Sequence record: MH445381.1
Source: Escherichia phage P1
Length of the DNA stretch: 64,000 bases
Direction: 5' to 3' (one strand)
Below the pieces are notes generated by a model. That model was not told where the DNA came from. It did not search any database and saw nothing but the letters and a program-made list of their open reading frames with translations. Numbering within the stretch: the stretch's first letter is position 1; every line of letters starts with the position of its first letter. Positions 54,112-57,143 of the stretch are shown in pieces. The position numbers were made by a program, and so were the translations under genes.

Positions 54112-54767
54112 CTACTCTAACGACAGCATACTTACAGCAATTGGTATTTTTTGCAGGCGAGGCTACTTGTCATCCTGACGCAAACTATTTATTGGAATTT
54201 GAGAGGTTAGCGTCACCCGGTATCGTTCTGGAACTGGCCCAACAGGTGCTGGCCTTGAGACAAAAAGAGCAACATGAAAGTAATACGTGTAGATTGAATT
54301 TTGAGCAGTGGCTGGAACAGCAACGCGGGAAAATCGATGTGGACTGTGGTTGTGTGTCCACTGAAACATTCATGCACTGGCTGCGGGTAGCTTACGAGGC
54401 TGGCAACTATCCGGATATTCCGGATAGTTCGGTGCCAGCGCCAGGAAAGGGCGTCACCGGTGAACGTATCCGCATTAAGCCGCATGTTTATCGCGAACTG
54501 GTTAACCGTCTCCACGATACAGCGATCAAGTGTGCTGGCACTCAGCAATTACGAGAAAGAATTAGCCGTGTTTTGGGCGACGTTATTACGCCATATCATC
54601 ATAAACAAGCCGAGAAAAGCGGTCTGGAAAGGTGTCATCTTGAGGCAGCATTAAACATTAAGCCGGGGCATACGCTAGGCATTATTGATGCACTGTTGGT
54701 TCATAAGATGGCCAGGGCTTTATTGTCGTTGGTGGACGCTGGTGATACAAGCGAGGGTGAAGTATGA
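54093..54767 (+). CDS. hypothetical protein
   Basis: 224-aa ORF. Confidence 0.35.
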   Translation: MAQKEMTTLTTAYLQQLVFFAGEATCHPDANYLLEFERLASPGIVLELAQQVLALRQKEQHESNTCRLNFEQWLEQQRGKIDVDCGCVSTETFMHWLRVAYEAGNYPDIPDSSVPAPGKGVTGERIRIKPHVYRELVNRLHDTAIKCAGTQQLRERISRVLGDVITPYHHKQAEKSGLERCHLEAALNIKPGHTLGIIDALLVHKMARALLSLVDAGDTSEGEV

Positions 54768-55126
54768 GAGTTGCAGATCACATCAAACACCTTGAAAGAA
54801 TTATCGAAAACGGTGAACTCTTAAGAGATCAGATGAGACGCACGGCAGAAGCCAGGGAGGCGATAATCCGCAGTCAGGCTGGTAAATTAAAGCAATTGTC
54901 AGAGATTAACACGCTATACAAGAACAGACGTAACCGGGCGGTGATGCGGCTTCAGAAAGCACGTAATGAAATTAAATTGGTGGAGGCAAAACTGAAAAAA
55001 CAGATCCAGCGTTACGATCAGCAAGATGCTTTTTATGCCGCCATCAAGGCGGCTGCTAATGAAATAGGCATCTGGAAGTTGCTGGTGGAGAAAGCAAAGA
55101 CGAAGTTAAATGCCAACGAAAGCTGA
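54764..55126 (+). CDS. coiled-coil protein
   Basis: 120-aa ORF, last gene of the rightward operon. Confidence 0.35.
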   Translation: MRVADHIKHLERIIENGELLRDQMRRTAEAREAIIRSQAGKLKQLSEINTLYKNRRNRAVMRLQKARNEIKLVEAKLKKQIQRYDQQDAFYAAIKAAANEIGIWKLLVEKAKTKLNANES

Positions 55127-55201
55127 ACTACAGGTGCCCACCAGCACATACAGAAAATGATTGTTTCCACATCAAGGAGATTTTAATGTTTCACTGAAAC
55201 A

Positions 55202-55339
55202 TTAAGTAAGCCAGTGCATAATTCCATTTTTTACTGACCTTAAAAGCAAAATCAAAACGATGATGAGGATAATAGCCAGAATCTGGCTAATAATAGGCGC
55301 ATCTAAAAATGCACTCAGGAACTGAAAAAAAGCGTTCAT
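55202..55339 (-). CDS. 45-aa hydrophobic peptide (candidate small membrane protein or type I toxin)
   Basis: Manual translation MNAFFQFLSAFLDAPIISQILAIILIIVLILLLRSVKNGIMHWLT; AGGA upstream; below ORF-track cutoff. Confidence 0.3.
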   Translation of the reverse strand: MNAFFQFLSAFLDAPIISQILAIILIIVLILLLRSVKNGIMHWLT

Positions 55340-55381
55340 TCAGGTGGTTCCTTGTCAAATGTAAAGGTGCACTTGCTCACG

Positions 55382-55410
55382 TTGACGTAGAAACCCAACC
55401 CCTATATAGT
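55382..55410 (+). promoter_or_regulatory. sigma70-like promoter in a non-coding region
   Basis: TTGACG-N17-TATAGT. Confidence 0.4.
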
Positions 55411-56201
55411 TGGATTCGGTGAATGAAAGTCGTTAACGTGAGCTTACGGCACATGTTTTCGGAAAAACATCAGGGAACGGCTAATTCCTTGATGCGGGTG
55501 GGGTCTGTAATGCAGACCCTATCTATTAACGTCATGATTGCATCTCAAATTTTCTCCTTATCTTCAATTAATCTACATTCATTTCATCTGTTAGCCACCA
55601 CAATATGTAGAAAATGGCCCTCTTGCAAGTGCATAACTTTGTGGATAACTCAGGAAGGAAAAAGTGGCTTTCGCGCACCTTCGGTCAGACAAGGTGTCCG
55701 GGAAAGTCAACGCAAAGAAAAAAATTGTTAAAAATAACGTTTGTTGGAATTGTATATTTTTATCCCCTTCAATGGTTAGCATTCTATTAACATCTTTTTT
55801 TAGAGACAGAAAAACATATCGTAACAACATATATACAGTGTTAAGCGGCGAGTATTATCCTGCGGTGGGAATTCTGGGCGCTGTTAGATTCGACTTTCTC
55901 AGCAGGATTACATCGTCAACTTGCGACGTTGCCGTATGACTTTCGTGTAATAGGTGACAATGATGCGGCTAGTGAGTTACTTGTGAAGTTTTTCGGAAAA
56001 GGTTTTGTGGCCTCGGATCTTGATGAGCTACAGCAACATGAAGTGTCTAATTTGATTTTTAGCCATAGCCAATAAGCCTCCCTCCTCCATCAAGGCCACA
56101 ATTTGTGACCTTAAACAATTTGTTTTCTGCTTTTTCTTATTTGAGAAAATAACGTTGTTGACAGCTAATAGGCTCGTTGTTGTTATACATGCCTGTATAG
56201 A

Positions 56202-56558
56202 TTATGACCGTAAATTATTAGCGGATTTTAAGCCATATTCACCGTTGTAGAAATTACTCATGTTCCATTCATTAGGAAGTTCTTTTCTGTCCAATGTATA
56301 GTGGCGCACGATATAACGATCTTCATCTTCTTCGATGGACAGGCGGACATAGCCAATGTGAATCACCGATACGGGCGGTGTTCGTATTGCATAGATGTCG
56401 CGGAGATATACCGGCAGCTCGACAAATGCATCAGGTGCATCTGTGATGCTCGTTTTTTCACAGTATTCATATAACGCATCGTTGATATCGTTAAGAGATT
56501 CATGATCGTATATTTCCAGGTAATTACCGCGATCGCGATGGTACTCGATTTTAGCCAT
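56202..56558 (-). CDS. hypothetical protein
   Basis: 118-aa ORF. Confidence 0.4.
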   Translation of the reverse strand: MAKIEYHRDRGNYLEIYDHESLNDINDALYEYCEKTSITDAPDAFVELPVYLRDIYAIRTPPVSVIHIGYVRLSIEEDEDRYIVRHYTLDRKELPNEWNMSNFYNGEYGLKSANNLRS

Positions 56559-57143
56559 TCAAAATCCCCTGTTATCGTTTTGCATTTCTCTAATCCGGTT
56601 CAGAACTACTTCATGCTGGACTTGGATAGCGGCTTTTTCGTTTTCAAGCCGGGCAATAGACATCTCTAATTCTTTGCTGTACCAGGCGAGCTGGGCCAGG
56701 TTCATCCGGTTGTGGTCGAGAGTTGGAGACACTTCGACGCGATCCCTTTCTTCCTGCTTTAATGAGAAGAGATTTATCTCATCCCTTGAGGAAAATTCAG
56801 CAACAATTTCTTGTTGATGATCCGGTCGCTGCGGCATCCTCGCCAGTATAAATGGCGGTTCTTTTGAAAACATGAATGTCGGTTCAGACCGTGTTTTTAC
56901 CCAGCTTGCCTGCTGTCTTTCGGCAAGTTCACAGGCTTCATCATAGTTATCTGCCAAACAAAGCACGGATGGACGGTCCCACGCCCCACCATTCAGACAA
57001 TAAACTACAATTTTCCCGTCAGGTTGTGTAACCCCATATGGATGGTCCCACCAGGCGTCCAGCTGAGCTTTAGAGCGTTTCTCGTTAGGAGTGCAGTCAA
57101 AATTTTTGGGCAATACAGGATCGAGAGGAATGCGGGCAGGCAT
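56559..57143 (-). CDS. hypothetical protein, divergent from humD
   Basis: 194-aa ORF. Confidence 0.4.
   Translation of the reverse strand: MPARIPLDPVLPKNFDCTPNEKRSKAQLDAWWDHPYGVTQPDGKIVVYCLNGGAWDRPSVLCLADNYDEACELAERQQASWVKTRSEPTFMFSKEPPFILARMPQRPDHQQEIVAEFSSRDEINLFSLKQEERDRVEVSPTLDHNRMNLAQLAWYSKELEMSIARLENEKAAIQVQHEVVLNRIREMQNDNRGF

Follow-up and report, generated by a model that had tools for sequence, protein, structure and literature searches.

The window, a 64-kb stretch of DNA, comes from a P1/P7-type phage-plasmid and matched P1-type records at 100% and P7 at 99.7%. A sequence-only reading had described positions 55130-56200 as a low-coding stretch of about 1 kb with a 45-aa hydrophobic ORF, a palindrome and a TTGACG-N17-TATAGT promoter. 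All three elements were found where that reading had placed them. Its low-coding description did not suit the right part, which carries the 3' remnant of a gene, and coding is not uniformly low. The claim that no ORF exceeds 100 aa was incorrect, as a 102-aa plus-strand ORF is present at 55423-55731 (Upf91.4 in P7).

Judged from its sequence, the stretch is a mosaic of a module (~55136-55740, ~600 bp) and a gene remnant. The remnant (55864-56075, plus strand) lies outside the module and retains 66 of the 174 codons of a TOPRIM/primase-like gene (phrog_17952), with 88% aa identity to residues 109-174 of a phage PhiR41_1 protein. IS903 of P7 is inserted within it, at 55939-55947. The module is restricted to P1-like plasmids and phages of E. 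coli, Salmonella and Shigella. It was counted in 229 plasmid records and in 216 of 5426 E. coli genomes, and it falls into three sequence classes, namely the window class, the P1 class and the diverged class. Its flanks vary by class: pmgV or hsdM adjoins it on the left, and its right neighbor is hot, Upf93.6 or humD. Imperfect 22-bp direct repeats lie on both sides. Neighbors of the module in the P1-like genome are phd/doc and the LexA-controlled humD region (LexA box, humD, lxr).

GenBank records of P1 and P7 annotate plus-strand proteins here: UpfM/Upf91.3, UpfN and UpfO in P1, and Upf91.4/91.6/91.7 in P7. That these are real genes is very improbable. UpfM does form a PHROG family (phrog_31823), but near-identical annotated copies can explain it, and none of the proteins had a Pfam match. 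As annotated, the UpfM, UpfN and UpfO (Upf91.x) frames were not conserved among relatives, which showed stops, frameshifts and a start-codon change. Two stop codons interrupt UpfM in the diverged class, and the Upf91.4/UpfN frame has a 1-nt indel and a stop, with a start codon that differs between P7 and P1. The 102-aa ORF was likewise unconserved; its start is missing in P1, and a 1-nt indel and stops break it in the diverged class.

The whole stretch may also be viewed as recombinational debris, consisting of a captured nrdA promoter piece, a gene remnant and spurious ORFs, in which apparent conservation would stem from recent shared descent or gene conversion and not from function. P1-like phage-plasmids have eight highly variable regions, and the locus belongs to one of them (PMC9603915), which suits this view, as do the 22-bp repeats around the module and the right half, which is clearly debris (the 3' gene remnant and IS903 target). 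In a CRISPRi screen, whose set did not include upfM, lytic growth did not depend on upfN or upfO (PMC10695390); an earlier deletion survey is cited there for upfM, upfN and upfO being non-essential. Both results fit debris as well. In a P1 RNA-seq table of gene-level values from lytic infection (PMC8201110), the upfN interval is at an intermediate level. Against the debris view, the module stays one unit in the three classes despite its different flanks. The distribution of divergence within the module, described below, also bears on it.

The hydrophobic reading frame and the palindrome

The 45-aa ORF (55202-55339, minus strand) translates as MNAFFQFLSAFLDAPIISQILAIILIIVLILLLRSVKNGIMHWLT. Its GRAVY value was +1.56, in agreement with the earlier description of a highly hydrophobic peptide, and that of the diverged-class version was +1.72. 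One transmembrane stretch was predicted at about residues 16-33, an uninterrupted hydrophobic run, and the C-terminal tail is basic. The ORF thus has the small size (<60 aa), the hydrophobicity and the predicted membrane helix by which type I toxins are recognized. A Shine-Dalgarno (SD) sequence, AAGGAA (55347-55353), lies 8 nt 5' of the AUG and reads GAGGA in the diverged class. At 24% DNA divergence (76% identity in the ORF), the diverged class has kept the 45 codons, the AUG and the SD without any indel. In some P1-type plasmids the ORF has been called automatically by PGAP (NCBI) as a hypothetical protein (WP_000123562.1). Protein-level selection on the ORF was weakly detectable: dN/dS was 0.41, the BLOSUM test gave p = 0.16, and an intact ORF was expected by chance with p ~0.08.

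Pfam and NCBIfam scans of the peptide, at E-value thresholds up to 10, matched no toxin family; Hok/Gef, Ldr, Fst, TisB, Ibs, ShoB, DinQ and ZorO were among the families without a profile match. The PHROG scan returned noise only (phrog_1184, E = 0.058). Searches for remote homologues, by exhaustive phmmer against 1.84 billion representatives, by word index, and with back-translated patterns in viral, metagenome and species-representative genome collections, all returned nothing beyond the three classes and truncated variants of the peptide.

The ORF half of the module was interrupted by IS1A in 3 of 229 plasmids, and the RNA block at 55376-55565 was intact in all 229. In the diverged class, the ORF was also broken independently, by IS1 and by a frameshift. 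The disruptions hit the C-terminal third of the ORF (IS1 twice, one frameshift and other altered tails).

These breaks bear on an alternative that shares the layout proposed below but makes the peptide a benign small membrane protein, not a toxin. The peptide would then be a stress-induced transporter or envelope modulator made in lysogeny, and the antisense RNA would merely tune its level. E. coli has many small hydrophobic proteins that are non-toxic, and one of them, MgtS, adjoins an sRNA gene. All anatomical arguments for a toxin-like module hold equally for a benign peptide, no toxin family was matched, and the addiction role in P1 is already filled by phd/doc. However, repeated independent breaks in the C-terminal third of the ORF beside an intact RNA block are the pattern of a costly gene, although a preference of IS1 for A+T-rich DNA could also have caused them. 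A strong constitutive antisense promoter combined with a predicted sequestered SD is, moreover, typical of toxin control. We consider a benign peptide unlikely.

The palindrome (55183-55205, minus strand) overlaps the stop codon of the ORF, and the earlier description of a perfect 23-bp palindrome at the ORF 3' end was accurate: arms TTAATGTTTCA and TGAAACATTAA match perfectly over 11 bp around one central C. As a measure of the chance level, close inverted repeats with 10 nt or more number only 12 in the 64-kb window, and perfect ones with 11 nt or more number 4. In the diverged class the sequence has changed, and a hairpin formed only in the minus-strand RNA (-5.6 kcal/mol, z = -2.35); no hairpin formed in the plus-strand RNA of the same region. 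One pair there changed from U-A to C-G as a compensatory pair and one from G-C to G.U. Its stem is rich in A+U (-7.8 to -9.6 kcal/mol). As a U-tract is absent on both strands, the palindrome is not a canonical intrinsic terminator, and it is better read as a stabilizing or processing stem-loop at the 3' end of the proposed peptide mRNA. By eye, the palindrome resembled a CRP site and 55537-55553 a C1 operator; both were rejected for misfits in spacing and core and for their loss in the diverged class.

The rightward promoter and the candidate antisense RNA

The sigma-70 promoter TTGACG-N17-TATAGT (55382-55410, plus strand) has 10 of 12 consensus bases and scored 15.4 bits, by far the best on both strands of 55130-55730. 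Its hexamers and spacing were invariant in 13 of 13 distinct sequences, and the variation consisted of two spacer bases. The number of promoter-like sites in the region was not above that of shuffles; the unusual features of this site are its score and its invariance across relatives. The P1 GenBank record already predicts three promoters here, PupfN, P1upfM and P2upfM, and PupfN is this promoter. No C1 operator is annotated at it in the P1 record. P1upfM and P2upfM were considered as promoters of an RNA antisense to the 45-aa ORF and rejected, since neither has intact hexamers in the diverged class.

The promoter points into structured sequence, as had been claimed. For 55417-55530, the plus-strand fold reached -43.2 kcal/mol (z = -5.5), compared with -27.9 kcal/mol (z = -3.0) for the minus strand. 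The fold, the promoter and a terminator-like end delimit a candidate sRNA of ~110 nt (55417-55528, plus strand). It has a 13-nt single-stranded 5' end followed by hairpins at 55430-55462, 55468-55494 and 55496-55524. A G+C-rich core stem precedes the tail UAUCUAUU, and only the plus orientation has such a U-rich tail; the tail is interrupted and was overlooked by a simple terminator scan. No conserved ORF runs along the sRNA, the plus-strand ORFs across it being frameshifted or stopped.

The diverged-class sRNA folded into the identical three hairpins, with one compensatory change from U-A to C-G in the terminator stem, three changes from G.U to A-U and four broken pairs. Covariation is thin because there are only three sequence classes. 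Differences between the classes were not significantly enriched in loops and unpaired positions (p = 0.39). The Rfam search that the sequence-only reading had recommended gave no matches on either strand of 54500-57000 at E-values up to 1, including Sok, Rdl, IstR and Sib. An exact-pattern scan of representative genomes for hairpin 2 also gave no matches.

The non-coding core at 55376-55565 (190 bp) was 91.6% identical between classes, compared with 76% in the ORF (Fisher p = 1.4e-4) and 71% in the flanking non-coding DNA (p = 6e-5). Recombination history could be a partial cause of this higher conservation. Such strongly uneven divergence, with a 190-bp island amid far less similar DNA, argues against debris, as does the joining of a near-consensus promoter and a stable RNA fold within the island. 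We regard debris as distinctly improbable.

The leftward promoter and the leader of the proposed mRNA

A leftward promoter, TTGCAA-N17-TATTGT (55600-55628, minus strand; expected start ~55592), is homologous to the nrdAB promoter of E. coli. It scored 10.2 bits; in the diverged class the -10 reads TACTGT or TACCGT and the score was 8.9 bits. The -10 is weak, and weaker in the diverged class. It was the best minus-strand site common to all three classes. Two DnaA boxes, TTATCCACA (55640-55648) and TTATGCACT (55628-55636), lie on the same strand immediately upstream of the -35 and were invariant in the three classes and in the region upstream of E. coli nrdA. All the parts of an nrdAB-type promoter were found: the two boxes, the TTGCAA -35, the 17-nt spacer, the -10 and an upstream inverted repeat.

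Homology to the E. coli nrdA upstream regulatory region extends over 130 bp (55610-55738, minus strand, 94.6%), taking in the inverted repeat upstream of the DnaA boxes and running through the boxes, -35, spacer and -10. A 71-bp core of it, at 97-100% identity, was present under ypaB in 5426 of 5426 complete E. coli genomes. The aligned E. coli hexamers are TTGCAA-17-TATCTT, ~107 nt before the nrdA AUG. GenBank M95666, the original P1 record, annotates a dnaA box and an "nrdA-like promoter" just upstream of the -10, which covers the boxes and the -35. Regulatory roles of the DnaA boxes and of the 45-bp inverted repeat have been described (PMC2500167). The DnaA-box segment also occurs without the module, beside umuD-like genes in other phages. 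Across the nrdA segment the window class was nearly identical to E. coli, which suggests recent exchange and is a further point in favor of debris.

The leftward promoter lies ~250 nt upstream of the 45-aa ORF, and no minus-strand terminator was found between them. It is likely the peptide's own promoter. Minus-strand candidates nearer the ORF (TACATT; TTGACA at 55358) were rejected as poor or as starting inside the ORF. The sequence-only reading had overlooked this nrdAB-type promoter. If the peptide promoter lies upstream of the sRNA, the sRNA would be a cis-antisense partner of the mRNA leader, not a divergent neighbor.

The proposed leader carries translation signals of its own (55470-55560, minus strand). 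A strong SD, TAAGGAG (55554-55560), is followed by an AUG and the mini-ORF MQS* (55532-55543); an AUGA restart overlapping the mini-ORF opens a 21-codon leader ORF (55470-55535). The SD/AUG block (55531-55565) was identical at 34 of 35 positions in the diverged class, though it lies beyond the sRNA. The AUG-stop-AUG layout was kept in the diverged class, as an AUG-UAA start-stop, and in L061, which has three substitutions there. The leader peptide sequence was unconserved, with six non-synonymous versus one synonymous changes.

Further downstream, a long interrupted hairpin (55375-55443, minus strand; RNAalifold helices 6-9) was predicted from the inverted repeat I5, whose 13-nt arms (55375-55387 and 55431-55443) are 92% complementary. 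It has an inner hairpin at 55390-55418 and encloses the sRNA promoter. The substitution G55442A of the diverged class turns a C-G pair into U.G on the minus strand and breaks a pair in the plus-strand fold. The SD of the peptide is predicted to be sequestered by an anti-SD, UUUCC (55461-55465, minus strand), within the sRNA-covered part; RNAalifold pairs it with GGAAC (55347-55351) as helix 5. This helix closes with G-C in the P1 class and with A-U in the diverged class; the window class is mismatched there. When the whole mRNA was folded from single sequences, the classes disagreed, also on the partner of the peptide SD. The consensus mRNA fold has four compensatory pairs, taken from the same alignment as was used for folding, and its shuffle control stood at 4-5 of 500, a value of a kind that, as the tool warns, can stem from relatedness.

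In the proposed 3' UTR, UCUCCUUG (55173-55180, minus strand) is complementary to UAAGGAGA of the leader SD (RNAalifold helix 1). In the diverged class this pairing has one mismatch and one wobble without compensation, and 8-bp matches of this sort are not uncommon by chance. A 5'-3' fold-back of the peptide mRNA through these elements is possible in the modeled fold, as a weak suggestion.

The minus-strand signals also bear on whether the plus-strand sRNA alone is functional, with the 45-aa ORF and the nrdA-like promoter as bystanders. The sRNA would then regulate host or phage mRNAs in trans, or serve as a leader or attenuator for downstream genes (hot in P1). The promoter and the RNA block are the most conserved parts, the evidence of protein-level selection on the ORF is weak, and the 13-nt single-stranded 5' end could act as a seed. 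However, exact complementarity of the sRNA to the rest of the 64-kb window reached at most 11 nt, which is the chance level, and its trans pairing with the short mRNA of the region 3' of the sRNA gene was no better than shuffles. The 35 bp past the terminator, with the minus-strand SD and AUG signals, were conserved like the RNA itself. The 3' hairpin and G55442A fit a minus-strand RNA better, and the RNA was kept although the window class lacks hot and the diverged class has a truncated copy. An sRNA acting alone is quite unlikely.

A proposed two-RNA module and known systems

The sequence-only reading had suggested a small toxin with sRNA control or a membrane peptide expressed in lysogeny. 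The conserved length, start and SD of the ORF, the stops in upfM and the invariant promoter directed into a stable RNA support this suggestion in part, on anatomical grounds. We propose that ~55136-55740 is a two-RNA module in which a small membrane peptide is controlled by a cis-antisense sRNA. It would be type I toxin-antitoxin-like, belong to no known family, and has in our estimate about an even chance of being correct. A membrane-peptide/antisense layout at this P1 locus is most likely new to the literature on P1; a literature search turned up no P1 sRNA and no type I system at this locus.

In the proposed module, we infer two transcripts. An mRNA of ~410 nt would start near 55592 at the nrdAB-type promoter, with its 45-bp inverted repeat and two DnaA boxes, and end at ~55180. 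Its leader would present a strong SD with a start-stop or mini-ORF, the 21-codon ORF and then the long hairpin, the base of which may sequester the ribosome-binding site (RBS) of the 45-aa ORF. The mRNA would encode the single-pass hydrophobic peptide and end in the palindromic stem-loop. From inside the leader, TTGACG-17-TATAGT on the opposite strand would produce the ~110-nt three-hairpin RNA with its terminator-like end. If the mRNA starts at the nrdA-like promoter, this RNA would be fully complementary to the leader from about +65 to +175, an overlap that would cover the leader ORF and the anti-SD.

Constitutive antisense RNA on the leader may block leader translation or form a long duplex for RNase III, and either outcome would keep the peptide off. 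One tension concerns the predicted mRNA fold, in which sRNA pairing would free the peptide SD, not mask it; any repression would thus depend on the leader ORF or on RNase III. The peptide would presumably be made once low DnaA-ATP or replication stress activates the nrdAB-type promoter, or once the shorter-lived RNA is lost.

A more specific version is that P1-type phage-plasmids hold a second, RNA-controlled killer module, with a membrane toxin of a new family on the captured nrdAB promoter. We put this forward tentatively, as possible but on balance improbable. The captured promoter would respond to DnaA-ATP, NrdR and the cell cycle, and the constitutive cis-antisense sRNA would restrain the toxin. 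The prophage might then sense host replication or nucleotide status, or its own loss, and damage the membrane, with post-segregational killing, abortive infection or persistence as the outcome.

The proposed module was compared with known systems. Like hok/sok, pnd and srnB, it would have a ~400-nt mRNA for a small hydrophobic peptide, an mRNA that in P1 is predicted. As in hok/sok, a strong constitutive promoter within the leader would produce a short antisense RNA over the leader frame rather than over the toxin start. Sequestration of the toxin RBS (predicted in P1), a possible 5'-3' fold-back and a low-copy plasmid replicon are further likenesses. In contrast to hok/sok, the P1 peptide had no Hok/Gef sequence match, and the P1 leader ORF stops ~130 nt before the peptide ORF, whereas mok overlaps its toxin gene. 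The P1 antisense RNA is ~110 nt with three hairpins, whereas Sok is ~64 nt. The P1 promoter is a copy of that of host nrdAB, and the fold-back is an 8-bp match without covariation.

In the ldr/rdl and Fst/par systems, too, a cis-antisense RNA faces the 5' leader of the mRNA, which encodes a small single-pass peptide. By eye, that peptide and the one of P1 have in common a D-x-A-P-[IV]-[IL] motif that opens the membrane helix. Membership of the peptide in Ldr/Fst was rejected: BLASTP against LdrD gave nothing at E-values up to 100, and no Pfam or NCBIfam toxin model matched. As neither BLASTP nor profiles confirmed the resemblance, the peptide was not filed as a member.

With tisB/istR-1 and dinQ/agrB, the P1 module would share a toxin promoter that responds to stress, a constitutive small RNA, a leader ORF that is either regulatory or without function, and a peptide of 30-45 aa active on the membrane (predicted in P1), as well as a DNA-damage neighborhood (LexA box, humD, lxr). 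However, the RNAs of those systems are divergent and pair by a short repeat, whereas the P1 RNA would overlap fully. Control in P1 would come through DnaA boxes at an nrdAB-type promoter and not through a LexA box, and there is no sequence similarity.

E. coli nrdAB itself (the ypaB-nrdA intergenic region) has the same inverted repeat, both DnaA boxes, TTGCAA, the 17-nt spacer and an aligned -10. The homology ends at about the transcription start, and the nrdA gene and its 5' UTR, which has an NrdR-box-like sequence, are replaced by the module leader. The P1-like -10 is TATTGT, TACTGT or TACCGT, whereas that of the host is TATCTT. MgtS (YneM)/MgrR resembles the module as a hydrophobic protein of <50 aa beside an sRNA gene under stress-responsive control. 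MgrR is not known to overlap or regulate the mgtS mRNA, whereas the P1 RNA sits within the predicted peptide leader.

Few phages have been studied as much as P1, and phage-plasmids of its type are now known to carry resistance genes commonly in Enterobacteriaceae. If the proposed module is real, a 20-year-old annotation (upfM, upfN, upfO and Upf91.x) would be wrong and would have masked an RNA-controlled membrane peptide. P1 would have a second maintenance or defense module besides phd/doc, and plasmid stability, curing and P1-derived vectors would be affected. A mobile element would have captured a host promoter for cell-cycle and replication stress (nrdAB with its DnaA boxes) for a toxin-like gene, and type I systems would be tied to DnaA status instead of LexA.

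Annotation, distribution and the 45-aa ORF

Phd, Doc and a HumD/UmuD-like protein are among the products encoded nearby. Positions 55100-56250 were 100% identical to two 'P1' records and 99.7% identical to phage P7, apart from the IS903 of P7 (at 55939-55947, with a 9-bp duplication). The left half (55100-55678) had ~96% identity to the reference P1 genome. The interval is part of one of the eight hyper-variable regions of P1-like phage-plasmids (PMC9603915). The P1 record lists upfM, upfN and upfO here, all small plus-strand ORFs without an assigned function, together with 'two predicted DnaA boxes' and three sigma-70 promoter predictions; the P7 record annotates ORFs Upf91.3 to Upf91.7. A CRISPRi screen, which left out upfM, found upfN and upfO non-essential for lytic growth (PMC10695390); as cited in that paper, an earlier deletion survey found all three non-essential. 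The only expression data located were a gene-level table of lytic P1vir infection that carries no strand or end information; in it, the upfN interval was intermediate, exceeding upfO ~10-fold and falling well short of pmgV.

The module (~55136-55740) was found in 229 plasmid records of Escherichia, Salmonella and Shigella, and in 216 of 5426 complete E. coli genomes, nearly always on P1-like plasmids. Its sequences form three classes: besides the window/P7 type there are a P1 type with 96-98% identity and a diverged type with ~81%. No further class came out of viral and metagenome scans, which recovered these three, and a scan of species-representative genomes gave no match. The diverged type is flanked by other genes: one plasmid has hsdM/hsdS to its left, and another has humD nearby to its right.

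The sequence-only reading held that no ORF over 100 aa lies here. A plus-strand ORF of 102 aa does exist (55423-55731), though it is not conserved. In the diverged class, the UpfM frame, which overlaps the peptide ORF, gains two stop codons, and the UpfN/Upf91.4 frame is disrupted by a 1-nt indel and a stop; its start codons also differ between P1 and P7. Because of these differences, the plus-strand ORFs are very probably spurious. The annotated genes upfM (Upf91.3), upfN, upfO and Upf91.4/91.6/91.7 (at 55309-55422, 55423-55731 and overlapping plus-strand frames), whose frames are lost in diverged P1-like plasmids, are probably annotation artefacts. The predicted promoters P1upfM and P2upfM were not conserved.

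The 45-aa minus-strand ORF lies at 55202-55339, exactly where it had been placed, and is called in some plasmids by the NCBI automatic annotation pipeline, PGAP (WP_000123562.1). The diverged class keeps its AUG, Shine-Dalgarno sequence (AAGGAA; GAGGA in the diverged class), length and hydrophobic character. Between the classes, 33 substitutions but no indels were counted in its 138 nt, whereas the non-coding flanks do have indels. Its dN/dS was 0.41, and it stayed intact in 8% of trials when the same substitutions were redistributed by simulation. BLOSUM similarity between the classes was not exceptional (p = 0.16). These values make a modest case for protein-level selection.

The peptide matched no known toxin family, and no more distant relative was found among 1.84 billion representative proteins. 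A likeness to Ldr/Fst, spotted by eye at the motif level, failed BLASTP. A non-toxic peptide within the same layout is unlikely in our judgement.

At 55183-55205, two perfect 11-bp arms enclose a single central base; this is the palindrome noted before. Since 12 close inverted repeats of 10 nt or more occur in the 64-kb window, the position of this one on the ORF stop codon is notable, not extraordinary. Its A+U-rich stem and missing U-tract ruled it out as an intrinsic terminator.

A conserved non-coding block and a candidate small RNA

The block at 55376-55565 was 91.6% identical between the window and the diverged class, compared with 76% for the ORF (Fisher p = 1.4e-4) and 71% for adjacent non-coding DNA (p = 6e-5). 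Judging from these alignments, the most conserved part of the module is non-coding. The block opens with the promoter TTGACG-N17-TATAGT (55382-55410), which the earlier reading had located and which is 'PupfN' predicted in the P1 record. It scored 15.4 bits, far exceeding any other site on either strand, and its hexamers and spacing were invariant in all 13 distinct sequences collected.

That this promoter points into structured sequence was borne out. From the expected start (~55417/8), the plus strand is predicted to form three hairpins (-43.2 kcal/mol, z = -5.5), compared with -27.9 (z = -3.0) for the complementary strand, and the same three hairpins were predicted for the diverged class. 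The last one has a G+C-rich core, GGGGUCUG/CAGACCC, with a compensatory U-A to C-G change. It is followed by UAUCUAUU in the plus orientation only, the minus strand having CACCCGCA. These features describe a candidate small RNA of ~110 nt. The Rfam search recommended earlier gave no family match on either strand.

Covariation was thin, with one compensatory pair, three one-sided neutral changes and four broken pairs, and class differences were not significantly concentrated at unpaired positions of the RNA (p = 0.39). The RNA showed no trans complementarity to the mRNA downstream of the overlap or to the remaining window. We consider it improbable that the module is non-functional debris.

A host-type promoter, the predicted leader and the mosaic surroundings

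The sole minus-strand promoter candidate common to all classes was TTGCAA-N17-TATTGT (55628->55600), whose -10 is TACTGT or TACCGT in the diverged class. Two invariant DnaA boxes, TTATCCACA and TTATGCACT, lie immediately 5' of it. The original P1 phd/doc record (M95666) marks an 'nrdA-like promoter' and 'dnaA box' at the same spot and strand. Positions 55610-55680 had 97-100% identity to a segment present in all 5426 E. coli genomes, annotated ypaB, directly 5' of nrdA and in the same orientation. The homology to the nrdA upstream region (55610-55738; 94.6% over 130 bp) includes the inverted repeat and, downstream of it, the DnaA boxes, the -35, the spacer and an aligned -10 that reads TATCTT in E. 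coli; it stops at about the transcription start. In E. coli the aligned hexamers are ~107 nt 5' of the nrdA start codon, in agreement with a 5' UTR of ~110 nt. This homology indicates that the phage site is a copy of a genuine host promoter, directed leftwards into the module. In E. coli, DnaA bound to these 9-mers governs the nrdAB promoter together with a 45-bp inverted repeat lying 5' of the 9-mers; DnaA-ATP is considered a repressor, and dnaA46 cells express the operon more strongly when held at the restrictive temperature (PMC2500167).

The DnaA-box segment with the A+T-rich DNA to its right (55624-55810) recurs without the peptide and small RNA in unrelated coliphages of ~108 kb, phage Cyrano among them, where it precedes umuD-like genes. 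This suggests a mosaic unit that shuttles in association with the SOS-gene neighbourhood. Mainly because the segment occurs without the module, and the region is mosaic, caution is needed in linking the boxes to the peptide. Imperfect 22-bp direct repeats (55138-55159 and 55595-55616; 17/22 identical, 457 bp apart) flank the peptide and small RNA. Of the two, the left one sits at the left limit of diverged-class homology, and the right one overlaps the nrdA-like promoter at its -10 and start. They could be a recombination scar, an insertion scar or chance.

The first ~30 nt of the predicted leftward transcript are variable, with a 17-nt indel in the diverged class. The next leader block is conserved at 34 of 35 positions, despite being outside the small RNA. 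It contains a strong Shine-Dalgarno sequence (TAAGGAG) and an AUG with the mini-ORF MQS*, whose stop overlaps a second AUG (AUGA) starting a 21-codon ORF. In the diverged class, a UAA directly after the first AUG makes a start-stop, and the second AUG is retained. One viral contig has three substitutions in the block, yet retains both AUGs and the stop. The 21-aa sequence is not conserved (six non-synonymous changes versus one synonymous); any constraint would therefore act on the signals and the RNA and not on the encoded residues.

The transcript would then cross the entire small-RNA gene in antisense and continue through the peptide Shine-Dalgarno sequence and ORF to the palindrome; no minus-strand terminator-like element was found between the leftward promoter and the palindrome. 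Its leader would form a long interrupted hairpin (55443->55375; 13-nt arms, 92% complementary). In an RNAalifold consensus of five sequences, UUUCC at 55461-55465 is the predicted partner of the peptide Shine-Dalgarno (GGAAC); the closing pair is G-C in P1-class sequences, becomes A-U in diverged ones and is mismatched in the window class. In the same prediction, pairing in the 3' hairpin, which in the diverged class forms in the minus-strand RNA only, survives U-A to C-G and G-C to G.U changes, and the leader Shine-Dalgarno can pair with UCUCCUUG immediately 3' of it. G55442A is neutral on the minus strand (C-G to U.G) and disrupts a pair of the plus-strand fold. Pair-count controls (4-5 of 500 shuffles) are suggestive only: this one alignment also supplied the structure, and by the tool's own warning, relatedness alone can yield such values without structure.

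Further right, the segment 55864-56075 (+) codes for the C-terminal 66 residues of a 174-residue TOPRIM/primase-like protein (88% aa identity), whose gene is intact in phage PhiR41_1. The GDNDAA motif is present, and because the 5' two-thirds are missing the segment is a 3' gene remnant. A hairpin, GGCCACAA/TTGTGACC, then T-rich DNA (~56094-56140) and a promoter-like TTGACA, 17 nt, TGTTAT (56159-56195, +) follow, the latter pointing rightwards into the antisense strand of Upf93.6 (118 aa; 56202-56558, -). At 56202-57143 (-), the P7-type pair Upf93.6 and Upf94.2 (194 aa) replaces hot of P1 (theta-subunit homologue). Upf94.2 is annotated as 'LexA regulated function' in MH422554; neither protein had an above-threshold Pfam match. 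Elsewhere in the window, an overlapping palindrome, ATATTGCTCTAATAAAT/ATTTATTAGTGTAATAT (31943-31974), looks like a bivalent C1 repressor operator (consensus ATTGCTCTAATAAATTT). Three tRNA genes at 32628-32781 and 34586-34661 (+; Asn-GTT, Thr-TGT and CAT-anticodon) are expected of a P1-type genome.

Disruptions of the ORF and the predicted regulatory layout

The RNA block was intact in all 229 plasmids and the ORF half was split in three, one of them by IS1A within codons 37-39 (55224-55231). Two diverged-class elements have an altered tail beyond the membrane helix, caused by an independent IS1 insertion in one and by a 1-nt frameshift in the other, and their RNA block is 99-100% intact. The C-terminal third was thus hit independently by IS1A (P1-class plasmids), IS1 (a diverged contig) and a 1-nt insertion (CP030285), with the adjoining RNA block intact each time. 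The protein collection held two more variants with altered tails. These disruptions are indirect hints of a cost of the peptide; they could also come from a preference of IS1 for A+T-rich DNA or from sequencing errors. A function in the RNA alone seems improbable.

In the reading we prefer, the small RNA gene would lie wholly within the peptide mRNA leader on the opposite strand. The two RNAs would be perfectly complementary over ~110 nt, a span that takes in the anti-Shine-Dalgarno and the leader ORF from roughly codon 3 onwards. The small RNA may keep the peptide off by blocking the leader translation start or by making an RNase III substrate, and the peptide would be made once the nrdAB-type promoter is strongly active or the small RNA is lost. 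This proposal is made because layout and logic resemble known type I systems: hok/sok and ldr/rdl share the cis-antisense layout, and tisB/istR-1 and dinQ/agrB combine a stress-responsive toxin promoter with a constitutive RNA. However, RNA pairing would free, not hide, the peptide Shine-Dalgarno in the predicted fold; simple occlusion of this site is therefore not the likely mechanism.

We thus predict, with moderate confidence, a type I toxin-antitoxin-like system. The toxin with sRNA control first proposed was broadly on target, and the observation behind it is real, but the anatomy is richer than noted. On the sequence evidence, the stretch comprises an nrdAB-type promoter of host origin, a predicted structured leader that bears translation signals, a candidate 45-aa membrane peptide and a conserved predicted cis-antisense small RNA. 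The module belongs to no known family, and the published annotation conceals these elements behind ORFs that are very probably spurious.
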